Made by a program: the position numbers and the translations under genes
Origin: a virus
DNA length: 64,000 nucleotides
Virus record (IMG/VR): IMGVR_UViG_3300017991_002758
Coordinates: 35,602 to 99,601 of that record
Strand: one strand, 5' to 3'
Shown here: positions 1,866-44,526 of the stretch, one piece after another
Numbering within the stretch: position 1 is the first letter of the stretch
Layout of the letters: each line of letters opens with the position of its first letter
Notes under the pieces: generated by a model
Seen by the model: only the letters and a program-made list of their open reading frames with translations
Database searches by the model: none
What the model was told of the DNA's origin: nothing

Positions 1866-4544
1866 ATGGCCCTCAATCAGTTCGGAGCTGGATTCCTACT
1901 GCAAGGCCGTGACATGGCCAGCCCGGTAATCAAGCGGGTTGGCGCGTCGTTCATGGGCCTGAATAAGACCGTTCAAACCGGAGCAATGGGCATGGGCAAA
2001 GCTCTGGGCTCGCTTGCAATAGGATTCGGCGCGCTGAAGATCGGGCAGGGCATGATGGGCATGGCCAAGGCCACGGCCGATGCTGCGGGTAAATTCGAGC
2101 AGGGCTTGGCCGGCGTCGCCGCGGTTTCGCGCGCCACGGTCGAAGAGCAGTTGATGCTGCACGACAAGGCCCTGGCATCGGCGATGAAATCCCAATACAG
2201 TCCCGATCAGGCGATTGAAGGCCTCACGAATTTGGCCACCGCCGGCCTGAAAGCCAAAGAGCAGATCGAAGTGCTGGACCCTGTGCTCAACTTGGCCGCG
2301 GGTTCCATGGGACAGCTCGGTCTGGGTGATGCGGCCAACGCCGTCGTCGGTACCGTTAAATCTATGGGGTATGAAGTTGGGCGAGCAACGGAAGTCACTG
2401 ACAAGCTGCTGAAAATAACGCAGCTCACCAACTTCCAAACTCGTGATTTTTCAATTGGATTGTCGAGGGCGACGGCAACGGCCAAGATCTACGGACAGTC
2501 GCTAGATGATGCTCTGATCCAGATGGGTCTTTTGCGTAATATGAACATCGAGGCATCGGTAGCATCAACCTCATTGCGCGAGGCCTGGCGTAGACTGGCC
2601 ACAGATCAGAAAGGCCAGCAGGCATTACAAAAGCAAGGCGTGCAGGTATTCGACGAGCAAACGAAGAAAGTTCGGCCAATGCTGGATGTGATGAGTGAGC
2701 TCGCGGTGAAGACCAAAGATCTCGACGACAAGGAACGCATGCGCCTGGCTACAGTGGCATTCGGTATTCGAGGAATGGCCGCTTACAATGCCGTGGCCGA
2801 GGCCAGTCAAACAATCATGGTGGACGGAATTGCAGTAAATCTGAAGGGCATCGACGCCATCAATGCCATGAGAATGGAGCTGATGGAGCAAGGCAAAGTG
2901 CTGGACGAAAATACTCAGGCCTCATTGAAAGCCTCGCTTGGCATAGAAGATCTCAGCGCGGTAATGAAATCGTCCACTGGCACAGCCGAAGCGTTCAGGA
3001 AAAAACTGCTCGACACGTACGAAGGTCAGAAGCAATTAATTACCGGCGCGAAGGAGGCCGTGGCAGTAGTAACTGGCGAGGCCGCGGCGAAACTATTCAA
3101 GCCAATCGCCGCCGGCGTCTTTATGGTGCTGTCCAAGCTGGCGGAATTCTTAAATTCAATACCTCCGGAGGCAAGGCAGGTGCTGATTGGCGTCGTGTCT
3201 GCCCTCGGTTCATTAATAGCGATGGCCGGTGGCATCCTTCTCCTACAAGGCGTTATGAACATGCTCGGCCTTTCCTTCGGGGGTATTGCAATAACCCTGG
3301 GCAAGTTCCTTTTGGTGGCGGCGCCGGTGATGGTGTCGATGACCGGGCTCGGCATTGGGATCTATGCGCTGTACCGCGCTTTCAATTCCAATGCACAGGG
3401 CATCGGCCTCAGTTGGAAGGATATGGTCGACCGAATAAAAACCGGCTGGCAAGTGATTACTGCTGTGGTCAAGGGAGAGGATTTCAGCAAGGCACTCAAG
3501 AAAAATATAGAGAAGCTTGGCATGGAAGGTTTCGTCAAGAAGTTCGAGAACTTTTGGGGCCGAATGCAAGCTCTGTGGAAGGGAATAAAACAGGGGTTCG
3601 AAGTAGGCGTAGCGGCATTGGCCGACTCTCCGGCATTTGCTCGTTTGCGGCAGACCATGAGCGGAGTGATCAGCCTGTTCACGGGCACGGAGATGACGGA
3701 CAGTCAAGCTGCTCTCAAGGGCTGGGAGGAACGCGGCAAGGCCGCGGGTATGAAGTTGGCTAGCCTGGGCGAGATCGCAGCCGACGTGCTGAACAAAATG
3801 ATCGAGCTGGGTCAGGGCTTCATGACCTTTATGAAGAACGTAGATGCCTCGGACATCGAATCCGGAATACACAATTTGGTCGACGCTTTCCGTACGCTTT
3901 GGGACATACTGAACGTGGTGAAAACGGCGTTCATGGGCATCTACAATACGGTAAAGCTCGTCGTTTCAGTCGTATGGGAATCCTTCCGCTGGATTATTCG
4001 CCTAATAGAAGCAGTTGGTGACCTTTGGGCATTGCCGGGCTCGAAGCATACTCTGGATGAATGGCGCGACTTTTACAAAGACAAGCTCGTTGGTGGCCAG
4101 GCATTCAACTGGACGACTGCTGCCGCCGGCGACCTGGCCGATACCTTCACCTCGGAAGCTGACAGATTGGCACAGCGCGACGAGAGCGCACGCACCAGGG
4201 GTAACCGCGAAGTACAAGCCCAACAAAGGCTCATCAACCTTGATAGATTGCGCGGCCGGAAGCGCGAGATCGAGGAATGGGTAAACATGTCCGCCGAGAA
4301 ATTCCACGAGAAGTACAAGGGAACAGCGGCGGAGGGCAACCTGGCATTCGGCGAGGCGCCGCTTGAAATGCAGCGGCAATTCTTGAAGGAGCTCGAGAAT
4401 GTAAGCAAGTCAATAGAAAAGCTGGCGAAGTCGCCGGTTACGGTAAATATCGATGGAGAGAAAGCGGCGGAGATCCTGGGCAGGCAACCGTCATTCAGCG
4501 GCGAGGATTCGCTGGACGATTCTGCTCCGGTATTTGTGCCGTAA
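1866..4544 (+). CDS. Tape measure protein (TP901-type core)
   Basis: 892 aa, Ala/Gly-rich helical; FEQGLAGVAAVS, YSPDQAIEGL..LA.AG and VLNLAA motifs; hydrophobic mid-segment. Confidence 0.92.
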   Translation: MALNQFGAGFLLQGRDMASPVIKRVGASFMGLNKTVQTGAMGMGKALGSLAIGFGALKIGQGMMGMAKATADAAGKFEQGLAGVAAVSRATVEEQLMLHDKALASAMKSQYSPDQAIEGLTNLATAGLKAKEQIEVLDPVLNLAAGSMGQLGLGDAANAVVGTVKSMGYEVGRATEVTDKLLKITQLTNFQTRDFSIGLSRATATAKIYGQSLDDALIQMGLLRNMNIEASVASTSLREAWRRLATDQKGQQALQKQGVQVFDEQTKKVRPMLDVMSELAVKTKDLDDKERMRLATVAFGIRGMAAYNAVAEASQTIMVDGIAVNLKGIDAINAMRMELMEQGKVLDENTQASLKASLGIEDLSAVMKSSTGTAEAFRKKLLDTYEGQKQLITGAKEAVAVVTGEAAAKLFKPIAAGVFMVLSKLAEFLNSIPPEARQVLIGVVSALGSLIAMAGGILLLQGVMNMLGLSFGGIAITLGKFLLVAAPVMVSMTGLGIGIYALYRAFNSNAQGIGLSWKDMVDRIKTGWQVITAVVKGEDFSKALKKNIEKLGMEGFVKKFENFWGRMQALWKGIKQGFEVGVAALADSPAFARLRQTMSGVISLFTGTEMTDSQAALKGWEERGKAAGMKLASLGEIAADVLNKMIELGQGFMTFMKNVDASDIESGIHNLVDAFRTLWDILNVVKTAFMGIYNTVKLVVSVVWESFRWIIRLIEAVGDLWALPGSKHTLDEWRDFYKDKLVGGQAFNWTTAAAGDLADTFTSEADRLAQRDESARTRGNREVQAQQRLINLDRLRGRKREIEEWVNMSAEKFHEKYKGTAAEGNLAFGEAPLEMQRQFLKELENVSKSIEKLAKSPVTVNIDGEKAAEILGRQPSFSGEDSLDDSAPVFVP

Positions 4545-31933: not shown

Positions 31934-31961
31934 GAGGCCGGCTCAAGCGACGGGGATTAAT

Positions 31962-32060
31962 AAGGTTTTTAACCTGTATAAAAAAAATGTTATTTAGTAA
32001 AAAAATATTTTACAAGGGTTAAAAAATGAGGTAAGAATATATCGTTATGAATTATTATAA
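31962..32060 (+). promoter_or_regulatory. AT-rich promoter/operator, copy 2
   Basis: GTAAAAAAATATTTTACAAGGGTTAAAAAA, with an upstream AGGTT-TTT-AACCT dyad. Confidence 0.6.
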
Positions 32061-32142: not shown

Positions 32143-33735
32143 ATGACAAACCAGACAGAGAACACCAGGCCCGAGAGCAAGACCGACATCGTTGAGATCA
32201 TGATGGCCATCGCCCGAGTGATCTACAAGGACAGCATGGCCCACCCCAAAACCCGGAAGGTGGCCCGGAATTTCCTGAAGCGCAAACGCGATCAGCGCGA
32301 GAGCGTGGCGCCGAAATTTTTGGCCGAGATGATTGAGGCCTACGGCCTGGCGAAAGACGCGACACCGTTTCACCTGATGGCCGCGATAACCAACGAAGAG
32401 CCGAAGCCCGAGCCCAAACCCGCACCGGACCACGAGAAAGCATCGAAAAAGGCGAGAGCAGCCAAGAAAGCCGAGCCGAAGCCGGCCGAAGAGCCCAAGG
32501 CGAAGAAGCAGGCAGAGAAAAAAGCCCAGGCGCCAGCGCCGAAGGCGGAGGAGCCGAAGGCGGAGGAGCCCGGTAGCGACGAGCCGGTTCCGACTTTTTG
32601 CGAGGAGCTGGGCATAACGCCGGCGACGGTGGCCAAACCCCAAGCGACGATCAGAGTGAAGTCCGTTGCCGAAGCCATCGCTCAAGCCGAAGGCAAGCAC
32701 CTTGGAGATCTGTGCGGCTGGTCGATAGCAGGATCGCGACCGAAGGCCCAGGTTGAGGCAGCCGCGCTGAAGCACGGCCTGGTGGACGACCTGGCGCTGC
32801 CGAGGCTCACGCCCAACGCCTGTTACCGAAAAGCGATCAGCGAGGTTTTCAACCGAGGCGGCAAGAACGAGCGCAAGTGGATCGCGGTCCTGGTCGAGGA
32901 CAGCGCCGAGAAGATCGTTCACTCCATTGTGGCGCGCGAAGTTGTGGACGACGAGAACGACGCGGTTTCCAGCAAGGACGCAGCGTTCAAGACCGAGATC
33001 AAGGTCGGCTTCGACAAGGAAGCCTACCGAAACGGCGCCAGCGCCGCCGGCTGTTTCGTGACCGAGGACTTCAGCCACCCGGCCGCGATCAAGTTCAAGG
33101 ACACGTACCTGGAACTGGCGGAAACCTACCTGGCCTACGACATTCGCAACAGCTTTCAGCAGGCCTTCAGGAGCTGGTCGGCCTGTCCGCTGCTCCCCCA
33201 CGGTGGCCTGTGGTACATCCCTTCGGTTTTCGCCGACAAGGTACGCGCCTGGAACGACTTCATGATCGACCTGGGCATGACCACGGTTGTCATCCCGGCG
33301 TTCGACACCAAAGAGACCATCGAGTCCTTGAAGGCCGCCACGCGCAACGGCCTGGAAGCCCAGCTCGCCTCGGTGCTCGAGCTTCTGGATTTCTACTCGC
33401 AACAGGGATGGAGCCGAATACGCACCAACACCTTGGAGACGAGAGTGGCGGAATTCGAGGAGCTGAGAAACAAGGCCGAGCTTTACACCAACATTCTCGG
33501 CACCTTCACCGACGACCTGACCAGCAAGGTTAAAATGGCAGCCGACCGCTTGACCGCGGACATAACGACCCGGCGCGAGCAAGAGGAGCGCGAGGCCAAG
33601 GAGGCCGCCGAGCAGAAGGAGGCCGCGAAGAAGGCAAAAGCCGAGGAGAGGGCCGCAGCTAGGAAGGCCAAGAAAGAGGCCGAGACAGAGACGGACGACG
33701 CCGGCCAGACCGACGGGAAAGCGAGGGTAGCGTAA
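32143..33735 (+). CDS. Unknown protein with a Lys/Ala/Glu/Pro linker and a DUF6744/DUF3150-like core, likely partner of the AAA-vWA pair
   Basis: GG.W.IP and ELRNKAELY..ILG recalled from that family type (unverified); SD AAGGAG. Confidence 0.55.
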   Translation: MTNQTENTRPESKTDIVEIMMAIARVIYKDSMAHPKTRKVARNFLKRKRDQRESVAPKFLAEMIEAYGLAKDATPFHLMAAITNEEPKPEPKPAPDHEKASKKARAAKKAEPKPAEEPKAKKQAEKKAQAPAPKAEEPKAEEPGSDEPVPTFCEELGITPATVAKPQATIRVKSVAEAIAQAEGKHLGDLCGWSIAGSRPKAQVEAAALKHGLVDDLALPRLTPNACYRKAISEVFNRGGKNERKWIAVLVEDSAEKIVHSIVAREVVDDENDAVSSKDAAFKTEIKVGFDKEAYRNGASAAGCFVTEDFSHPAAIKFKDTYLELAETYLAYDIRNSFQQAFRSWSACPLLPHGGLWYIPSVFADKVRAWNDFMIDLGMTTVVIPAFDTKETIESLKAATRNGLEAQLASVLELLDFYSQQGWSRIRTNTLETRVAEFEELRNKAELYTNILGTFTDDLTSKVKMAADRLTADITTRREQEEREAKEAAEQKEAAKKAKAEERAAARKAKKEAETETDDAGQTDGKARVA

Positions 33736-33792
33736 CCCGCTGATGAGCCCTGGGCACAGGGCGAAACCGGGCTCCGGCCCGGTCCGGGATGC
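33730..33792 (+). ncRNA. Type I hammerhead ribozyme
   Basis: cccg CTGATGA gccctg-ggca-cagggc GAAA ccgggc-tccg-gcccgg TC cggg; all core nucleotides and three stems present. Confidence 0.93.
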
Positions 33793-33826
33793 AATAAAGC
33801 ACCCATAAAAACAGGAGGCACCCCAG

Positions 33827-35227
33827 ATGACAAAAAAAGAGAAGATGGAAAAAACAATGATGGCGCTGGCCGACGTAGTCGTCAACGAGGAACAGTTTCC
33901 TGCCGTGAAGCTACTCAAGGAGCTTCAGCTCAAGGAGCTGGTCAAGGAGTACGGGAAGGTGACCAAGCGCGATGAGCTGGCCCAGCGCCGGAAGGACGCG
34001 GAGAAGGAGCGCAAGGCGGAGACAGCAAACAGGTTGAAGGCGGCCGAGCAAGTCGCTGACACGGACGCCAAGGGCCTCTCCAAGAGGCTGAGCAAACTGC
34101 GCCGGGAGATGAAGGCGCGCTTCATCGAAAGAGGGCCGCTGGTGGACGGTGCGCTGACCGCTACCATCGCCAACGACCACCTGCTCATGTTGGGCCCTCC
34201 GGGTACCGCGAAAACGGATTTCGCTGAGATGCTCGCCGAGTGCTTGGGCCGAACTTATTTCAGCCACCAGGTGGCGAAGGACACCACACCGGAGGAGATC
34301 CTGGGCATGTTCAGCGCAACGGCCATGATCGAAGAGGATGAGTACAGGCGAAACACCGAAGGCGTCGCACCGCAGATGGAAGTGTGGTTCTTGGATGAGA
34401 TTTTCAAGTCGAGCAGCGCGCTGCTCAACGCCTTCTTGCGCGGCATGGAACAGCGGATAATGAGGAACGGCCCGGAGGTGGTTGAGCTTCCGCTCGAGTC
34501 GGTTTTCGCTGCTTCCAACGAGTACCCGGAGGACAAGGATCTGGACGCACTCTACGACAGGTTCGCGATGAAATTCTGGCTGGACTACATTGGCGACCAG
34601 GATAAGCTCGAAAAGCTTATCGCAAACGGCGCTCCGAAAGTTACCGCGAGATTGAACCGCGAGGATCTGGACGCGCTCCGCATACTCTCGCAACGGGTGG
34701 CCTGGGGCAAAGACGAGGCCTCCATCCTGATGAAGATCAAGCGAGCAGTTGAGGAAGTCGGGTTCATTGCCAGCGACCGAACATGGATAGGCAAGGCGCC
34801 GAAGTTGGTAAAGGCACGCGCCGCAATGAACGGCCGCGATTACATTACCACAAGCGACTGGCTGGTTCTGGTTGATGCCCTCTGGAAAAAGCACACTGAT
34901 CGTCCTGCTCTACTGAAAGCCGTTGGCAACGCAGCGGACCCCTACGGCGCCAGAGCAACAAGCATCATCGACGGCGTGAGGATCGCGATGAGGGAAATGC
35001 CGACGTTGGACGATGTGAAAGCCGGGACGCTCACCAAGGCGGCCGCGATGAAGAAAATGGGCGAGGTCAACGCACAGCTTGCCGGCCGGCGCGACGCCAT
35101 CATGGAGGTTCAGGAAAAGGCAGCGGACAACGAGGCGGTCAAAGAGGCGGTCGAAGCAGTGGACGCGGCATTGAACAAACTGACGGCAGTGGGCCGCGAG
35201 ATCACCATGTACAGGCCGGTGGTTTAG
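33827..35227 (+). CDS. MoxR-family AAA+ ATPase (RavA-like)
   Basis: Walker A GPPGTAKT, Walker B FLDEIFK, ASNE.P, ALYDRF, sensor-2 SDR.W. Confidence 0.9.
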   Translation: MTKKEKMEKTMMALADVVVNEEQFPAVKLLKELQLKELVKEYGKVTKRDELAQRRKDAEKERKAETANRLKAAEQVADTDAKGLSKRLSKLRREMKARFIERGPLVDGALTATIANDHLLMLGPPGTAKTDFAEMLAECLGRTYFSHQVAKDTTPEEILGMFSATAMIEEDEYRRNTEGVAPQMEVWFLDEIFKSSSALLNAFLRGMEQRIMRNGPEVVELPLESVFAASNEYPEDKDLDALYDRFAMKFWLDYIGDQDKLEKLIANGAPKVTARLNREDLDALRILSQRVAWGKDEASILMKIKRAVEEVGFIASDRTWIGKAPKLVKARAAMNGRDYITTSDWLVLVDALWKKHTDRPALLKAVGNAADPYGARATSIIDGVRIAMREMPTLDDVKAGTLTKAAAMKKMGEVNAQLAGRRDAIMEVQEKAADNEAVKEAVEAVDAALNKLTAVGREITMYRPVV

Positions 35228-35233
35228 GAGGGC

Positions 35234-36700
35234 ATGATGACTGGACTCATCTACAACGCAAGCGACTTTCAGCGCCATCTCTGGGACGACCATAAGATGG
35301 CTGACGAGGCCGCAGACGGGGCAGAAAAAGTCGCGGCGAAAAGGTACGAGGCGTTCCCGGAATTCGCCGGCGAGATGTTTCACTACTTTCACGCTGAAGA
35401 ACCAGAGACCCTGGAAGAGCCGGCCTCGGGCAGCGAGGTTTTTCAGAAGCTGGACGCAGCCATGAGACAAGTTCCCGAGGTTGAGGATCTTCGGGCCCAG
35501 ACCATTGGCAACGACCGCTGGGCCGGCGTCGTCACCGCAAGCATGATTGATACCTTGCTGCACAAGGTGCCAGCGCCAGATAAAAAGGTAGAGGATGTAC
35601 GAAACGACGAAGACGCCATTGAGTATTTAGAGAGGCTGCTCGAGCAGGCGGAAGAGGACGGCGACAGTGAACAGGCCGCGGGAATTGAAGAGGCGCTCAA
35701 CGAGCTGATAGACGGCCTGGAGGAGAAGCGGGATGCAGCGGAAGCCGCAGCCGACCAGATGGACCCGACCGACGTGAGACAGGCCATTCGCAAAGCGGTT
35801 AAACAGGCGTCCAAGGATATCGAAGACGCACAGGCCATGCTTGACGCTTTTGGCATTGGCACCGATCAGCACTCAGGGCGAAAGGCTCAGATGGCGACCG
35901 GCGCGAAACTGGCCAAGCTTGTTCAGGGCAACGACCGACTCAGGCGCATCGCGGAATTCGCCGGCCGCCTTCGCAGGATCGCAAACGAGGAACAGCGCAA
36001 GAAGCCACGCTTCGGTTGCGGCGAGCGCGTTGGGCGGAAACCCGACAACGATCTGGCCAAGCTCTGCCACCGAGAGCTGATTTACGGAGCCGAGCCCTTG
36101 CGTCACATCTTCGGTATGAAGTACGCCGACCGCTCGCTCGTGTGCGTCGAAAAGGCCGACCGGAAGAAGCAACAGAAAGGTCCGGTGGTCATGGTTCTGG
36201 ACAGTAGCGGATCAATGAGTACCGGCGACGCCGATGTTTGGGCAGCCGCTGTTTGCTTGGCGTACATGGACGTGGCCCGGCAGCAGAACCGCGACTTTGC
36301 GATAGTTCATTTCGGCTCTGCTGTTTTGAGGATCGACAAGTTTGTGGGCAAGGATTCGATGACGCCGGAGGCAATAACCGAGGCGGTCAACTTTTTCGCC
36401 GCCGATGGCGGAACCAATTTTGAGGATAGCCTAATGGCAGCGGTGAAGATAATCCGGGAGACCGGCGAATTCAAGAACGCGGACATCGTGATGGTAACCG
36501 ACGGTTGCGCCAGCGTGAGCAACGCTTGGCTCGATTCGTATGAACAGGCCAAGGCCGAGCTGGACTTCAGTTGCTATTCGGTGCTGGTTGGATCCTACTG
36601 CAAAGGCGAAGTAAACGAGAAGTTCAGCGACGAAGTTGAGCACCTGGCCAATGCGATCAGGGATGAAGAGCAAATGCATCACCTGTTTGGGAAGGTTTGA
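35234..36700 (+). CDS. vWA-domain protein (ViaA-like)
   Basis: KGP...LDSSGSM MIDAS, GGTNF, ADIVMVTDG. Confidence 0.9.
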   Translation: MMTGLIYNASDFQRHLWDDHKMADEAADGAEKVAAKRYEAFPEFAGEMFHYFHAEEPETLEEPASGSEVFQKLDAAMRQVPEVEDLRAQTIGNDRWAGVVTASMIDTLLHKVPAPDKKVEDVRNDEDAIEYLERLLEQAEEDGDSEQAAGIEEALNELIDGLEEKRDAAEAAADQMDPTDVRQAIRKAVKQASKDIEDAQAMLDAFGIGTDQHSGRKAQMATGAKLAKLVQGNDRLRRIAEFAGRLRRIANEEQRKKPRFGCGERVGRKPDNDLAKLCHRELIYGAEPLRHIFGMKYADRSLVCVEKADRKKQQKGPVVMVLDSSGSMSTGDADVWAAAVCLAYMDVARQQNRDFAIVHFGSAVLRIDKFVGKDSMTPEAITEAVNFFAADGGTNFEDSLMAAVKIIRETGEFKNADIVMVTDGCASVSNAWLDSYEQAKAELDFSCYSVLVGSYCKGEVNEKFSDEVEHLANAIRDEEQMHHLFGKV

Positions 36701-36703
36701 GAA

Positions 36704-37045
36704 ATGGCGAAGAAAAAGTTACCACCAATTGACCAATTCGCTGTCGGCAATGAAGTGACCCACATGGTGGCGCTCGCCGACCTCGTCATCGATAACCAAA
36801 TTACCGCCAAAGACGGCGCAAAGCGGATCAGTAAATCGTTCGACCGGCTCCATGAGGTCGTGATGAAAGGAGGTCAGATAGATCGGGACGAGGCCGCACA
36901 GGTTATTTACGCTCTGGCCACAGGGCTCAAGGGAGCGGTCCTGGCCCTGGGTAAAAAAGGCCCGGTCATGGTCCGATACATCGACGGAGAGGCTCTAGTA
37001 ACTCTGCTCATGCCCGACGGCCCACCGCCGGGTATGGGCGGATAA
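36704..37045 (+). CDS. Hypothetical protein, probably co-transcribed with AAA-vWA
   Basis: Starts 3 nt after the vWA stop. Confidence 0.55.
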   Translation: MAKKKLPPIDQFAVGNEVTHMVALADLVIDNQITAKDGAKRISKSFDRLHEVVMKGGQIDRDEAAQVIYALATGLKGAVLALGKKGPVMVRYIDGEALVTLLMPDGPPPGMGG

Positions 37046-37054
37046 ACAGGCCTC

Positions 37055-37151
37055 AGCTCGGGCTACCTAGCAGGCTCCTGAGTCCCCTTTTACCGGCAGG
37101 GGTGCCCTTTGTAGGAGAGCCGGCTCAGGAGCCTACTCGGAGGCCCGAGCT
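37055..37151 (+). other. Long imperfect intergenic inverted repeat / RNA hairpin
   Basis: 30-nt arms with 5 differences, plus inner stems. Confidence 0.8.
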
Positions 37152-39356: not shown

Positions 39357-40604
39357 ATGGGACTAAGCAAACAAGAACATTTGAAGTGGTTGCAAGGTAG
39401 ACAGAATGGCGTTGGTTCGTCCGATTCGCCAGTGCTGGCATTGCCACCTGAAAAGGTATTCAAGAAGACGGCCGTCGATTTATACATCAGCAAAATCAGA
39501 GACATAAAGATGGAAGATGTCGAGGACGAAGGCGAAAATCCCAACTTCCGCCGCGGCCACACGTACGAGCCATTGGCGGTCGCAATGTTCCAGGCGCAAA
39601 CAGGAATTAAGGTATACGCGCCGGTCACCGACGAGGAGAGGTTCAAGACATTTCAGGTTCAAGATCCTGATTCACCGCTATTTGCCGACTTCGATGGCTT
39701 TTGCGAGGACGGGTGGGTTTATGAAGGCAAAGCGCCAGTGCAGCGAGTATGCGATTCATTCAAGACCCAGGGCATTAAAGAATACTACATGGTACAGGCC
39801 CAACACCTTGCTCACCTGGCCAACGTCTGCGAGCTTCCCTTTCTAGGAAAGGACTCTAAGAAATGGCTTGGTAAAATAAAAGGCACGCGCCTGGTAGTGT
39901 ACGAGCCGGAGAATGTTCAGTTGCAGATCGTCGAGCTGCCAATCGACCAGGGTATGATCGGCGCCATAATCAAGAATGCCAAGACGTTTTGGGCCGACTA
40001 TGTAATGAAGAGGGTTCCGCCGGCGGATACCATTTACGAACAGCCTGTTTCGCAAAAAGCTACCAAGGGCCGATACAAGGAGATGACGCAGAAGGAATGG
40101 CAGGACGCTGTCAATCTGTTCAAACTGGCCAAAGAGCAGGCAGCAGTTGCCGAGGCCAAACTCGACCAGGCCAAGGACGGAATGGCCCACAGAATGCAGG
40201 AAGCCGGCGAGGAAGCGGTCAATGTAGGGCCGCATAAGTTTCTCTACCGTATGGTCGCCGGCCGGAGATCATTCGACAAAAAAGCATTGCAAGCGGACTT
40301 CCCCAATCTCGACTTGGATAAGTACATGAAACAGGGGAAGCCCATAAAGCAATTCAACTATTACGGTCCAAGGAACGACGCGAATCCCTACCTCGAGAAC
40401 GATGATTCGACCACAATGACCATTCATTCTGAGTTAGAAGCTTTCGCTAAGCAAAACAATATTGATCCCGAGGAGGCGGTTGATATTTTTGATGAGTTGA
40501 GAGCCCGTGCGGATCTCTATGCCTCGGTGCTCGAGATGGAGCTCGGGGCAATACGCATGGGAGTGGATAAAGCAGCCGAAGCAGTCACCAAAAAACTTGG
40601 CTAG
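39357..40604 (+). CDS. YqaJ-like (lambda-exonuclease family) recombination nuclease
   Basis: WL..R..GVGSSD, RGH.YEP, ADFDG, EGK and Y.VQ.QH motifs. Confidence 0.85.
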   Translation: MGLSKQEHLKWLQGRQNGVGSSDSPVLALPPEKVFKKTAVDLYISKIRDIKMEDVEDEGENPNFRRGHTYEPLAVAMFQAQTGIKVYAPVTDEERFKTFQVQDPDSPLFADFDGFCEDGWVYEGKAPVQRVCDSFKTQGIKEYYMVQAQHLAHLANVCELPFLGKDSKKWLGKIKGTRLVVYEPENVQLQIVELPIDQGMIGAIIKNAKTFWADYVMKRVPPADTIYEQPVSQKATKGRYKEMTQKEWQDAVNLFKLAKEQAAVAEAKLDQAKDGMAHRMQEAGEEAVNVGPHKFLYRMVAGRRSFDKKALQADFPNLDLDKYMKQGKPIKQFNYYGPRNDANPYLENDDSTTMTIHSELEAFAKQNNIDPEEAVDIFDELRARADLYASVLEMELGAIRMGVDKAAEAVTKKLG

Positions 40605-40628
40605 GCCAAAGAAAGGAAGAGGCAGAAT

Positions 40629-41852
40629 ATGGGAAATGAGAATTACGAAAAAATTAAAGCTCGCCTGGAGAGCGACAGCCTGAAGGAAATGATCGAAGGC
40701 TCGCTACCTTCGTCAATCGATGCCACGTCGTGGATTAATTCCGCACTGACGCATGTTGGATCCGACAAGGATCTGCTCATCGCAACACCAACGTCGACCA
40801 TCGCGGCCATACTGGAAGCTGCAACGCTCGGCGTGCGTTTTGAGGGACCGCTCGGTGAGGCTTACCTCGAGGCGCGCAACAATAAAAAGAAGGATGAGCG
40901 CGGTAAAGAGTACTGGGAGAAAATAACCCAGCTGCAGGTTCAATACCGCGGCCTGATGAAACTCGCGCGGCGCGACCCATCGGTCAGGAAGATCGAAGCA
41001 ATCATCGTGCACGAGCACGACTACTTCAAGCACCAGCTGGGTACGAACCTATTTCTCGACCACACATGGGATGTTCGCCAGCCCAGGGGAAAGATGGTTG
41101 CCGTCTATGCCGCCATTCGTTATCACGACGGCTTTTATGACTTCGGGCAGCCCTACCCAATCGAAGCTGTTTATAACCACCGCAACAATGTTCTCGCCGA
41201 CAAGAACATCCGGGTCGAAATTGCCAAGGACGGCACGGAGATATTCTGGAAGCGATGGAAAAACGATGAGCCAGAGAAAGTACTTTCGCCGGCGAGCATG
41301 AGGCGCACACCTTGGATTACCTACTTCCCGGCGATGGCCCAGAAGACGGCCATCAGATGGTCCGCTAAATTTTGGGAGCTGAGTCCCGATTTCGAGCGCG
41401 CCGCCGGCCTGGTTTCCCTTGCCGAGTCTGGACACCAGCAGGACCTGGAGAAGCGGTTTGAGAGGCTGCTTGCGGAGAGGGAGGCCCAGGGCGAAGGCGA
41501 TGGCGATATGAAGAAGGAGGCGGCCGCTCAGGGAGTGCAGAACGTGAGCCTGGCAACAATGCATGGCCTCCGCGAGCAGATGCTGGCCGAAACCGGCGTT
41601 ACTGGCCAGGGCGCGATGGAAGGTCCACCGGAGGAACAGGGCAACGAAGGCGCCGAGAACGCCGAGTCTGGGCCCGAGCCCGAGGATCAATCCAGTAAGG
41701 AGCAAGAGCCCGAATCGAAGGAGCCAACGCCAGAGGAGCAAGAGGAGATTCGGGAGCGCGAACTTCAAGAGGCGGCAGAATTTCAACGCGAACAGAAACA
41801 GGGCAGTGCCAAAGGAACGGGTCGGAAGGGCAGCGGCAAGAAAGGCAGGTGA
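40629..41852 (+). CDS. recT: RecT-family single-strand annealing protein
   Basis: LGEAYL, QYRGLMKLARR, V.E.D.F, VYA and MAQKTAIR; acidic tail. Confidence 0.9.
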   Translation: MGNENYEKIKARLESDSLKEMIEGSLPSSIDATSWINSALTHVGSDKDLLIATPTSTIAAILEAATLGVRFEGPLGEAYLEARNNKKKDERGKEYWEKITQLQVQYRGLMKLARRDPSVRKIEAIIVHEHDYFKHQLGTNLFLDHTWDVRQPRGKMVAVYAAIRYHDGFYDFGQPYPIEAVYNHRNNVLADKNIRVEIAKDGTEIFWKRWKNDEPEKVLSPASMRRTPWITYFPAMAQKTAIRWSAKFWELSPDFERAAGLVSLAESGHQQDLEKRFERLLAEREAQGEGDGDMKKEAAAQGVQNVSLATMHGLREQMLAETGVTGQGAMEGPPEEQGNEGAENAESGPEPEDQSSKEQEPESKEPTPEEQEEIRERELQEAAEFQREQKQGSAKGTGRKGSGKKGR

Positions 41853-41856
41853 GCCT

Positions 41857-42141
41857 ATGGCCGACGGAAAAGTACCCGAAAGGATTCGCAAGCAAGTTTT
41901 TCGAGAGGATGGACTCATATGCGCCGTCTGCGGATTGACGGGATTTGAAGTTCCACGGCCTAGTGGTGGTGTGGGTTATTACACTCCCATTGAAGGAGTG
42001 TACATGAGCATAGACCATATTATTCCTATGGCGAAAGGCGGAACCAACAACAGAAAAAATCTGAGAGTATTGTGTACAACATGCAACACCATCAAAGGAA
42101 CTAAGATTGAAGATGGCAGGAAGCGAGCTGGCAATGCGTGA
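41857..42141 (+). CDS. HNH endonuclease
   Basis: CAVC...IDHIIP..KGG.N...NL..LC..CN..KG. Confidence 0.9.
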   Translation: MADGKVPERIRKQVFREDGLICAVCGLTGFEVPRPSGGVGYYTPIEGVYMSIDHIIPMAKGGTNNRKNLRVLCTTCNTIKGTKIEDGRKRAGNA

Positions 42142-43066
42142 TTATGGAACGGTTTCCGCCAAGTTCTGGATTGGAAATACCGGTAAAATTCTCAGAGGTG
42201 ATTGCCAAGCTCAGGTGTTAGCTCTTTATCTAATAACTTCGCCGCATTCATCGATGTCGGGATTGTATTATTGCCCAACTACCTACATGGCTCAAGATAC
42301 AGGCATCCCCTTGGAAGGGGCTTCGAAGGCCCTTCGCAAGTTAATTAATGTTGGGTTTTGCGAGTATGATGAAAAGATGGAGATGATTTTTGTCATACGC
42401 ATGGCCCAATATCAAATTGGTGGCAATTTATCGACAAAGGACAAGCGCAGAATTGGTCTAATAAAGGAGCTGAAAAAGATTCCTAACACTGTGCTTTTAA
42501 AATCATTTCTCAAGGAATATTCTGAATTGTTTAATTTGAATCCGGCTGAATTTGGGGTTGATATACATAGCCCCTTCGAAGGGGCTCAGATGCCCCTCTT
42601 GAGCCAGGATCAGGATCAGGATCAGGATCAAGAACAAGATAGGGAGTTAGGGCGGAGGCGTGAACCGCCTCCTCCCCAGCAGCCGGATTTTAAAGACCGT
42701 GTGCCGCCTGAAGGTAGCTCATATAGACTCAAGACGATCTATGCCGCAATGCAGAATGTCGACTTCAATGTGCCCGGCGTCGGTGACCAGACCATGTGGG
42801 ACAATGTGACCAAACCAAGAAAGGTCGCCGAGAATCTGGATAAGAGCGCGCCGGCGATTGACATACCCAAGCTGATAACGAAGCTCGCTGGTTGGACATA
42901 TGCGAACCCCAAAAAGGCGAAGAAGGATCTCGGACGTTTCGTTTGGAATGCCGCGATTAAAGACCAGGACATACCACGACCGACCGGCCACAATGGAGAT
43001 GATTACGCGCACGGATCTGATTTGGCGGCGAAGGTGAACAAGGCAAAACAGGGAGGTGGTCGATGA
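42134..43066 (+). CDS. Phage replication initiator protein
   Basis: MRDYG.VS..FW, LYL.TSPH, G.C.YD and QDQDQDQEQ linker; directly upstream of DnaB. Confidence 0.8.
   Translation: MRDYGTVSAKFWIGNTGKILRGDCQAQVLALYLITSPHSSMSGLYYCPTTYMAQDTGIPLEGASKALRKLINVGFCEYDEKMEMIFVIRMAQYQIGGNLSTKDKRRIGLIKELKKIPNTVLLKSFLKEYSELFNLNPAEFGVDIHSPFEGAQMPLLSQDQDQDQDQEQDRELGRRREPPPPQQPDFKDRVPPEGSSYRLKTIYAAMQNVDFNVPGVGDQTMWDNVTKPRKVAENLDKSAPAIDIPKLITKLAGWTYANPKKAKKDLGRFVWNAAIKDQDIPRPTGHNGDDYAHGSDLAAKVNKAKQGGGR
42307..42640. other. Putative replication origin inside the initiator gene
   Basis: CCCCTT(C/G)GAAGGGG dyads at 42307 and 42571, AT-rich tract between them, CAGGAT x4 at 42605. Confidence 0.6.
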
Positions 43067-44526
43067 GCACGGACAGGGTTCCACCATATGACCAACAGGC
43101 CGAGGCCGCATGCCTCGGTTCGGTGCTGTTGAACAACGAGGCAATGGCCCAAATCCGTTCGGTAATTTCAGGCTGCGAGGACTTTTATGTTGAGGCCCAC
43201 CGCAGAATATTCGAGGCTATGCTCGAGCTTTCTTCTCATGGGAAGCCAATCGATCCGGTGACGCTGGGTAATGTGCTAAAGGAGAGGGGAGATCTTGAGA
43301 AAGTAGGAGGAGCAGCTATCTTCTCTGGCTTATTGGACAGCGTTGCTACGGTGGCCAATGTCGATCACTACGCCGGCATTGTCCGCGACAAGGCCGCCAC
43401 CCGAAAAATGATTTACACTGCTCAAGAGATTTTCGCTAGAGGTTTTTCGGAGGGCATCAATATATCCGAATACTTGGCCGAATCGCGCAAGGCAATAACC
43501 CTGGCATCGGCTTTCGATGTCGCCGAAGGTCCGCGATTGGTTGGAACGGACATTAAGGAGATCTTCGCGGAGCTGGAAACAGGCAAGGCGCCAGAGGGTA
43601 TGGTGAAGACCGGAGTCGGTGTAATCGACGAGCTCACCGGAGGTCTGTGGCCAAAGCTGATGACCGTCATTGGCGGCCGGCCTGGAATGGGCAAGTCAGC
43701 TCTAGTTCTAAACATCGCCACCAATGCCGCGAAGCAGGGCAAAAAGGTGATGTACACCACCTTGGAAGACGACCGTCGCATGGTAGTTCTGCGAATGTTG
43801 GCTCGCTTTGGTGACGTCGACCTGAACAACTTGATGCTCAGGTCTGTGCCCGATAATTCATGGCCCGGATTGATCAAAGCAGCCAACACCATAAGCCAAG
43901 TACCACTGTACGTCGACGACTCGGCCGCGCTTTCTTCGGATCAAATACACCAGCGCGCCGCTTTGCTTCACCAAATGCATGGCCTGGACCTGCTCATTGT
44001 AGACCACCTGGGCGAAGTCGCCGACAAAGGCGAGAGCCTGACGGCTATTACCGAGGCCGCGGCCAAGGGCCTGCGAAATATCGCCAAGGAATTGAACATT
44101 CCAGTTTTGCTTGCTGTTCAGCTCAATAGGGAGGTAGAGCGCCGCAACGACAAGCGACCCACGCTACACGATTTGAGGCAGAGCGGAGCAATAGAACAAG
44201 TAGCGCGATTCATCTGGTTCCTGTACCGTCGAGGCTATTACATCAAAGGGTGCGAAGACGATCCTGACACGCAGCTCATCGTGGCCAAATCCAGCCATGG
44301 AAAAACAGGCATGATCAGGCTATGGTCAGATCTCTCGCGAATGTTCATGCGTGGCTGGGAAATAGATCGCGATGGGCCGTTTCCCGAGGATAATGCCAAG
44401 CACTATGAAAAGCCGGAGAGTTTCAGCGGAGAAGAGGATCGGCAGAGAAAGTTTTTTGAGAACACTGGGCCAGAGTCCAGTACAGCAAAGTCCAAGCAGT
44501 ATGATGATTGGACGAATAAATACTGA
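43063..44526 (+). CDS. dnaB: Replicative DNA helicase
   Basis: PP....AE...LGS.L, GRPGMGKS, IVDHL, QLNR.VE.R.DKRP.L.DLR.SG.IEQ. Confidence 0.95.
   Translation: MSTDRVPPYDQQAEAACLGSVLLNNEAMAQIRSVISGCEDFYVEAHRRIFEAMLELSSHGKPIDPVTLGNVLKERGDLEKVGGAAIFSGLLDSVATVANVDHYAGIVRDKAATRKMIYTAQEIFARGFSEGINISEYLAESRKAITLASAFDVAEGPRLVGTDIKEIFAELETGKAPEGMVKTGVGVIDELTGGLWPKLMTVIGGRPGMGKSALVLNIATNAAKQGKKVMYTTLEDDRRMVVLRMLARFGDVDLNNLMLRSVPDNSWPGLIKAANTISQVPLYVDDSAALSSDQIHQRAALLHQMHGLDLLIVDHLGEVADKGESLTAITEAAAKGLRNIAKELNIPVLLAVQLNREVERRNDKRPTLHDLRQSGAIEQVARFIWFLYRRGYYIKGCEDDPDTQLIVAKSSHGKTGMIRLWSDLSRMFMRGWEIDRDGPFPEDNAKHYEKPESFSGEEDRQRKFFENTGPESSTAKSKQYDDWTNKY

Follow-up and report, generated by a model that had tools for sequence, protein, structure and literature searches.

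In the described pairs of a MoxR ATPase and a vWA protein, such as RavA-ViaA, CbbQ-CbbO and p618/p892 of Acidianus two-tailed virus (ATV), targets are delivered to the ATPase ring by the vWA protein, which serves as an adaptor (cited in PMC7159879 and PMC7911831). Viral pairs of this kind have been reported, in addition to ATV, from Bacillus phage 0305phi8-36 (gp66/gp63; PMC2147016) and from the haloviruses Hardycor1 and HVTV-1 (PMC7911831). Hammerhead ribozymes are known to flank genes in prophage polycistronic RNAs and to cleave both in vitro and in vivo (PMC3088659), and a review calls the biological function of phage ribozymes, of which there are hundreds in the hammerhead, twister and similar classes, "largely elusive" (PMC6765202). 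In the current study a phage locus was analyzed in which genes for a DUF6744-family protein, a MoxR ATPase and a vWA protein lie in a row, with a predicted type I hammerhead in the spacer between the first two. The locus is part of a 64,000-nucleotide (nt) stretch, referred to below as the window, which comprises bases 35602-99601 of the 99.6-kb IMG/VR virus record IMGVR_UViG_3300017991_002758 (CheckV completeness 100%). All feature coordinates are given in table 1.

The locus probably represents a conserved three-protein phage remodelling module with an acquired hammerhead, the latter being an accessory and not a defining part of the module. The ribozyme would be a known kind of phage mRNA-processing RNA that was inserted into the module, and it probably has no defining role there.

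Conservation of the gene linkage carries the first half of this interpretation. A search with an alignment of DUF6744 homologs found 9 loci in viral contigs, 26 in metagenomes and 3 in genomes, and the order DUF6744, MoxR, vWA was present in every related locus with enough flanking sequence, the exception being locus L034 (MoxR-vWA-DUF6744). In the closer relatives the series continues with a small open reading frame (ORF; orf113), a 408-aa ORF and RecE/RecT. The three families also occur in a row in Moorella phage MTATph1, where three small ORFs lie between the first two and the DUF6744 homolog is only 22% identical (206.6 bits against Pfam DUF6744). For an independent test of linkage, viral contigs were searched with a MoxR alignment alone, followed by the DUF6744 hidden Markov model; a search of the viral contigs with a single MoxR protein had found nothing. 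A DUF6744-like ORF adjoined the ATPase in 44 of the 51 phage loci recovered in this way, and in five of these 44 the order was MoxR-DUF6744-vWA, a variation that favours functional linkage over inherited synteny. On the basis of these sequence comparisons, DUF6744, MoxR and vWA form a strongly conserved, linked phage module. The trio was not described in the literature searched, and the gene linkage claimed by the original prediction, which had been made from the window sequence alone, is upheld.

The other viral MoxR-vWA pairs are similar in being ATPase-adaptor pairs located in the replication or accessory region of large tailed phages, and the window ATPase is 31-34% identical to gp66 of 0305phi8-36 and gp147 of Aphanizomenon phage CL131. 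Unlike the window module, these pairs were reported with no mention of a third partner, and DUF6744 was undetectable beside MoxR-vWA in 0305phi8-36 and CL131. Genes with an LPD29 domain (CL131) and a WGR domain (0305phi8-36) that lie near MoxR in these two phages may be alternative third partners. The ATV pair differs further by its role in tail development.

The ATPase of the window scored above the Pfam cut-offs for bpMoxR (147 bits, E 4e-43), AAA_5 (67 bits) and AAA_lid_8 (42 bits). Its Walker A (GPPGTAKT) and Walker B (FLDE) motifs are intact and, together with ASN, invariant in the MoxR alignment (A3). The vWA protein, whose gene starts 7 nt past the MoxR stop codon, exceeded the cut-offs for VWA_2 (35.6 bits) and VWA_3 (34.1 bits). 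It is helical in its N-terminal two thirds, and the vWA domain (residues ~305-488) carries a complete MIDAS motif (for metal ion-dependent adhesion site; DSSGS...GGT...TDG), in which D323, S325, S327, T394 and D423 are invariant across 16 sequences (alignment A5). The identification of a RavA-like ATPase and a ViaA-like protein, both with intact motifs, was therefore correct. As in E. coli RavA-ViaA, an AAA_5-type ATPase with an AAA_lid_8 is followed by a vWA/MIDAS protein, in similar size and order, and RavA and ViaA were also the best NCBIfam names. However, the scores were far under the equivalog cut-offs (141.7 vs 681 bits for RavA, 60.9 vs 500 bits for ViaA), and the RavA match is confined to the ATPase core (profile positions 5-289 of 498), whereas the equivalog extends over the full length including the C-terminal part. 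Moreover, RavA-ViaA has no DUF6744 partner, and the window pair is phage-borne. Judged by sequence similarity, the two proteins are RavA/ViaA-like and not orthologs.

The product of the first gene had been noted as an unknown 530-aa protein; the ORF is indeed there, but the protein is not wholly unknown, as residues 172-465 match Pfam DUF6744 (PF20529) with 42.7 bits (gathering score 27). Its start at position 32143 is backed by an AAGGAGA box and by an N-terminus that is conserved across 15 homologs, and 17 homologs with 42-60% identity were found. The family as a whole comprises 343 representative clusters among 1.84 billion proteins. AlphaFold models of the protein reached a predicted local distance difference test score of 72 for the full length and 87 for the alpha/beta core, which holds an inserted subdomain; the N-terminal helical part and the disordered linker are additions to DUF6744 by the clade of the window protein. 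Foldseek found no match to the full model or the core in the PDB at E <= 0.001. VIA-align returned only helical bundles for the full model (residues 388-502), and for the core it returned small ferredoxin-like domains (Cas2, the PaaX middle domain, the RnlA NRD) with Z <= 6.5, a range below 8 in which a match may reflect just a common arrangement. RdgC was considered as a fold relative and dismissed as noise (TM 0.23-0.26). Structure matches in BFVD were exclusively uncharacterized proteins of tailed phages, one of them from the haloarchaeal virus HVTV-1. No paper found by the literature search names DUF6744.

All long ORFs near the module are on the + strand. The 5' side is taken up by very large ORFs, of which one has a virion-structural match, and by several ORFs without matches; on the 3' side PHROGs matches identified a RecE-like exonuclease with a RecT-like annealing protein and, beyond them, a DnaD-like loader with a DnaB-like helicase. 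The module thus stands first in the replication/recombination gene block of this large tailed phage (~100 kb), a position that fits the early timing originally proposed. In other phages its neighbours include genes for a polymerase clamp, RecQ helicase and ribonucleotide reductase. By association, the neighbouring genes here and in other phages point to the replication phase of infection and not to virion assembly.

This setting bears on another reading of the trio, namely that it belongs to the MoxR-vWA ternary conflict systems described by Kaur, Burroughs, Iyer and Aravind (2020; PMC7159879), serving in defence, superinfection exclusion or anti-defence and not as a chaperone for replication, recombination or assembly. 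The resemblance is real in that a MoxR-vWA couple is accompanied by one constant third protein, which is the hallmark of those systems, and in that the top Pfam model of the ATPase, bpMoxR, was defined on them; in addition, conflict genes are frequent on mobile elements. Yet the third protein here is DUF6744 and not one of the components that define the ternary systems (VMAP, iSTAND, FtsH or beta-propeller), and Pfam detected no effector, peptidase, STAND or propeller domain in the four window proteins. PADLOC gave no convincing match, the best (E 5e-4) covering a short stretch. The module occurs on a phage beside replication genes, i.e. with RecE, RecT and DnaB here and with polymerase, helicase or nucleotide-reductase genes elsewhere. 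Among the cellular genomes sampled (phylum of a Sphingomonadales metagenome-assembled genome), DUF6744 was present in 1 of 401, and this sole carrier was the assembly already known for it. A conflict system is therefore considered unlikely, and the anti-defence and client roles suggested in the original prediction received no direct evidence, as no PADLOC family passed and no effector domain was found.

The hammerhead placed between the first two genes by the original prediction was confirmed in its full core, its three helices and its orientation. It lies on the coding strand, exactly between the stop codon of the DUF6744 gene and the ribosome-binding site of the MoxR gene, and no promoter or terminator was predicted in this 91-nt spacer. 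The invariant type I core is complete, with CUGAUGA, GAA, the A15.1-U16.1 pair (A33766-U33783) and C17 at position 33784. Stem I consists of 4 pairs, an A.A mismatch and 3 further pairs, stem II of 6 pairs and stem III of 7 pairs; stems II and III are closed by loops, stem I is open, and standard pairs adjoin the core, in agreement with the type I topology. The predicted cut falls upstream of the AGGAGG box, 42 nt 5' of the MoxR ATG. The exact three-way junction of the hammerhead is the minimum-energy fold of the 61 nt. Hammerhead_1 was the top Rfam family for positions 33735-33790 (E 0.028 for 6.3 kb and all families; E 1e-4 for this family alone and the 99.6-kb genome), and no family reached its Rfam gathering score anywhere in the window.

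Membership of a larger group was supported by comparison with other phages. A pattern made from the core and stem I of the window hammerhead matched 55 IMG/VR stretches, many of them with 2-4 copies. When the window copy was aligned with 60 phage type I hammerheads (alignment A7), changes on both sides were seen at 8 of 14 pairs, indicating covarying stems, and the phage type I covariance model gave 62.5 bits for the window copy, which was itself in the seed of the model. The flanks UAACCCG...CGGGAUGC are common to the window copy and a type I subgroup. The loop II sequence GCA is complementary to the UGC of the 3' tail, a contact that amounts to 3 pairs only in the window copy; family-wide, the complementarity of loop II to its own 3' tail was higher than to permuted tails (3 of 2000 permutations reached the observed mean). 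Such complementarity fits the tertiary pseudoknots known for natural hammerheads (PMC3088659). On these sequence grounds, the window RNA genuinely belongs to a type I hammerhead group that is common in phages, with predicted cleavage.

The subgroup sharing the UAACCCG...CGGGAUGC flanks (L042, L047, L091, L094 and others) has GGCG or GGCA as loop II and is spread over viral contigs that are unrelated, a contig often containing 2-4 copies. In its 5' flank the conserved UAA could at the same time be the stop codon of the upstream gene, as is the case in the window.

A chance or decayed, inactive motif in an ordinary intercistronic spacer is an explanation that we regard as very improbable. It gains something from the Rfam score, which is under the curated cut-off, from the short stem I with its 4 pairs ahead of the A.A mismatch, and from the lowest-energy fold in a 111-nt context, where the 3' strand of stem I is paired elsewhere. 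On the other hand, all invariant core bases are present with standard core-adjacent pairs, the descriptor search found no comparably strong site in any of 200 shuffled windows, the 61 nt alone form the junction at 46% ensemble frequency, and both the flanks and the loop/tail complementarity are common to the covarying phage subfamily. The window copy is the sole hammerhead of the 99.6-kb genome. A weak type II-like match upstream of the window in the same genome (24660-24730; 20 bits, E 0.007) falls within a 343-aa ORF, has poor stems and is probably due to chance.

In its canonical core, its coding-strand orientation and its position between polycistronic genes, the window RNA resembles the intergenic phage and prophage hammerheads (Perreault et al. 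2011, PMC3088659; PMC6765202), for which the flanked genes vary, and HHphage of the haloviruses HF1/HF2 also lies immediately upstream of an early operon, before its first gene. It differs from them in that its neighbours constitute a defined, conserved three-protein module, and in that a distant relative has a hammerhead of another topology at this junction. The literature search revealed no published connection between hammerheads and MoxR-vWA genes, and to this extent the claim that the combination had not been described before holds. In contrast, phage intergenic hammerheads and the idea that they determine mRNA fate have been published (PMC3088659, PMC6765202), as have MoxR-vWA pairs in phage replication or accessory regions (PMC2147016, PMC7911831).

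The ribozyme rarely recurs at this junction. Loci L002-L010 contained no Rfam family above cut-off, and with Rfam in E-value mode, applied to five of these and 21 further loci, a hammerhead was detected in L024 only. L024 is a 2.9-kb metagenome contig whose DUF6744 protein is 43% identical to that of the window. It has two type II hammerheads, one of which (2506-2570, 41.0 bits) occupies the same junction as in the window: its first base is the third base of the DUF6744 stop codon, and 27 nt separate its end from the MoxR ATG. The other (665-734) sits between the preceding ORF and a block of three ORFs (161 aa, 62 aa and DUF6744, 309 aa). The first hammerhead descriptor, which was over-strict on stem I, had missed these type II RNAs. 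The two hammerheads of L024 bracket the three-ORF block, and each begins within a few bases of the previous stop codon; this repeats the published pattern of two hammerheads around a short gene block.

In 645 kb of module loci, the window copy was the only match of a covariance model trained on 61 phage type I hammerheads, and three complete relatives (95-98 kb) had no comparable type I match. Rfam at gathering thresholds, the level at which types II and III were screened in these loci, revealed no ribozyme in 36 more distant MoxR loci, where nearly all DUF6744/MoxR spacers were without even a CUGANGA heptamer. Conversely, the module was absent from all 55 phage stretches found by the hammerhead pattern. 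Altogether, about 2 of 47 distinct DUF6744-to-MoxR junctions bear a hammerhead, and the two are of differing topology. The ribozyme is thus missing from ~45 other junctions and cannot be called a general feature of the system; its expected recurrence in homologous operons failed in most of them, but the type II RNA at the same junction of L024 keeps this expectation partly alive.

The junction has other forms in other lineages. In at least eight of them the DUF6744 and MoxR genes overlap or are less than 60 nt apart, and elsewhere the spacer measures 100-540 nt. Three lineages (L003, L004 and L016) have a strong promoter-like site facing MoxR in a long spacer, where shuffles gave 0.1-0.6 such sites. 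Sequence comparison suggests that separation of DUF6744 from the MoxR-vWA message recurs by several means and is far from universal. A spacer of ~100 nt composed of four stable hairpins (minimum free energy ~ -50 kcal/mol) is common to L007, L008 and L038 at this junction, with no Rfam match and no hammerhead core.

These data bear on the question of whether ribozyme cleavage is a selected, integral regulator of the ratio of DUF6744 to the chaperone pair, in which case the hammerhead would be part of the system. Several observations speak for this. The only hammerhead of the genome falls at the DUF6744/MoxR junction; an independent type II hammerhead is found at the same place in L024, with a second upstream of the DUF6744 block; and a break in the transcript may recur by other means through the strong promoter in the same spacer of three further lineages. 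By rough count, hammerheads are present at 2 of ~47 such junctions as compared with one among several hundred others in the same loci, but this count is small and post hoc. Furthermore, ~45 junctions are without any hammerhead core, at least eight of them being overlapping or shorter than 60 nt, which implies coupled expression, and none of the 55 hammerhead-pattern stretches has the module. An integral regulator is therefore judged fairly unlikely. The related proposal, that a cut at the DUF6744/MoxR boundary is under selection to set the DUF6744 : MoxR-vWA ratio, with different hammerhead topologies recruited independently by two lineages (type I here, type II in L024) and promoters by others, is conceivable but doubtful.

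The interpretation as a conserved module with an acquired, accessory ribozyme has several points against it. Hammerheads of different topology at one junction, in two relatives that are just 43% identical, exceed what random insertion would lead one to expect, and this recurrence leaves room for selection at the site. The Rfam score for RF00163 Hammerhead_1 (23.7 bits for 33735-33790) does not reach the family's gathering score, 34. That the four genes are co-transcribed is suggested only by their spacing and by the lack of predicted signals. Finally, the fold searches with DUF6744 yielded no functional lead, the top match (Z 6.5) being to generic ferredoxin-like, Cas2-like or PaaX-like domains.

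A working model of the module can be built on the established roles of MoxR-vWA pairs. By analogy, remodelling or assembly of a protein complex is the most likely task of the MoxR ring with its vWA adaptor; DUF6744 would be the third, constant subunit, in the role of a substrate, an adaptor or a regulator. One transcript would run from the AT-rich region near position 32040 through all four genes, and the hammerhead would cut it co-transcriptionally at the predicted site. Upstream of the cut, the mRNA for DUF6744 would be left with stems II and III as two stable hairpins at its 3' end, terminated by a 2',3'-cyclic phosphate; downstream of it, the message for MoxR, vWA and orf113 would carry a 5'-OH and a leader of 42 nt in which the ribosome-binding site is kept. 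The two halves could therefore have separate lifetimes and be translated independently of each other. In this respect the model transfers to the present operon a hypothesis already published for phage hammerheads, namely that they set differential mRNA fate (PMC3088659, PMC6765202). The 5' hairpin of the predicted downstream fragment was no more stable than shuffles (z -1.2), and therefore no claim is made for mRNA stabilization or for the direction of an effect. The ribozyme itself, which belongs to a subfamily of hammerheads common in phages, would have been acquired by this lineage; the relatives may uncouple the two transcripts variously, by a hammerhead or an internal promoter, and many would not do so at all.

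Phage hammerheads and phage MoxR-vWA pairs are already known in kind; new here are a ribozyme inside the module and a second hammerhead type at the same junction in one distant relative. With a ribozyme at a defined boundary of a conserved module, and with natural comparisons available (another hammerhead type, a promoter, overlapping genes), hypotheses of differential expression become testable. The DUF6744-MoxR-vWA trio is widespread in large phages beside replication/recombination genes, and knowledge of its target would fill a gap in early phage biology. If cleavage were indeed selected, this would be the first bacterial or phage self-cleaving ribozyme with a placement linked to the subunit stoichiometry of a particular protein machine, and the long-standing question of phage hammerhead function could be addressed in a tractable model.

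Table 1. Coordinates of features in the window and, where a locus number or phage is named, in related loci.
Feature	Sequence	Position	Strand	Basis or remark
Candidate sigma-70-like promoter, TTTACA-18-AAGAAT	window	32009..32038	+	9/12 matches; in AT-rich spacer 31955-32046 upstream of DUF6744 gene
DUF6744-family protein, 530 aa	window	32143..33735	+	Pfam PF20529
Predicted layout of DUF6744 protein	window	residues 13-83 N-terminal helical part; 91-176 disordered linker; ~180-390 alpha/beta core; 390-520 C-terminal helical bundle and long helix		AlphaFold models
Type I hammerhead (predicted)	window	33732..33792	+	Rfam, descriptor search, folding, phage family alignment
Stem I	window	33732-39 / 33785-92	+	TAA stop of DUF6744 gene (33733-35) lies inside
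Hammerhead core, CUGAUGA and GAA	window	33740-46; 33763-65	+	
Stem II, loop GGCA	window	33747-52 / 33757-62	+	
Stem III	window	33766-72 / 33777-83	+	
Predicted self-cleavage site (after C17 of GUC)	window	33784/33785	+	hammerhead consensus applied to sequence
Shine-Dalgarno AGGAGG of MoxR gene	window	33813..33818	+	sequence; 8 nt 5' of ATG
MoxR-family AAA+ ATPase (RavA-like), 466 aa	window	33827..35227	+	Pfam bpMoxR, AAA_5, AAA_lid_8; PHROG 19600 ATPase
ViaA-like vWA protein, 488 aa	window	35234..36700	+	Pfam VWA_2, VWA_3, VWA_CoxE; PHROG 24053
Small conserved ORF (orf113), 113 aa	window	36704..37045	+	tblastn; next to vWA in close relatives
Rod-like hairpin, 97 nt, apex CAGGGGUGC, without U-tract	window	37055..37151	+	folding
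RecE-like exonuclease and RecT-like annealing protein	window	39357..41852	+	PHROGs; synteny with module kept in relatives
DnaD-like loader and DnaB-like helicase	window	42107-44526	+	PHROGs
Type II hammerheads	L024	2506-2570 and 665-734		41.0 and 40.3 bits (Rfam cut-off 37)
Spacer promoter candidate, TTGACA-16-TATTAT	L004			11/12
Spacer promoter candidate, TTGACC-16-TATTAT	L003			10/12
Spacer promoter candidate, TTTACA-16-TATGAT	L016			10/12
Four-hairpin spacer	L007	7961-8061		
Four-hairpin spacer	L008	954-1054		
Four-hairpin spacer	L038	6979-7076		
Hairpin after orf113 homolog	L003	11612-11722		
Hairpin after orf113 homolog	L005	11613-11723		
Hairpin after orf113 homolog	L011	9168-9278		
Hairpin after orf113 homolog	L014	9080-9172		
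CL131 gp148	L099	758-1600		LPD29 domain; gene immediately before MoxR
0305phi8-36 gp71	L098	118-1050		WGR domain; five genes upstream of MoxR

The promoter-like region that had been noted upstream of the DUF6744 gene does contain a 9/12 site, but such sites were not enriched over shuffles (3 found, 2.0 +/- 1.4 expected), and a promoter function, as read from the sequence, is only suggestive. The promoter-like stretch of the window, TTTACAAGGGTTAAAAAATGAGGTAAGAAT, resembles TTGTCAAGATGGAAAAAATGAGGAATAAGT in the DUF6744/MoxR spacer of L006 (~3205-3240), which reads TTGTCA...AAAAAATGAGG...AATAAG. The two stretches could be one type of phage promoter, placed at different points of the module.

The small ORF and the long hairpin that had been reported downstream of the vWA gene were both recovered. 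Homologs of orf113 were matched by tblastn with 33-47% identity in L002-L006, L011, L014, L016 and L018-L020, and the protein had no match in Pfam, PHROG or NCBIfam. The hairpin is more stable than expected by chance (z -4.4; none of 200 shuffles folded equally well). A hairpin of this form was absent after orf113 in L002, L004 and L006, and it recurs directly 3' of the orf113 homolog in four relatives, three of which are distinct (L003 and L005 are near-identical). The recurring hairpins have no U-tract and no Rfam match. Their apex CAGGGGTGC is invariant while the stem sequences are divergent, and their minimum free energy per 110 nt is -62 to -80 kcal/mol, compared with a background of -39.5 +/- 5.8. 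The element could function as a conserved RNA, e.g. as a site for RNase III, or at the DNA level, e.g. as an origin.

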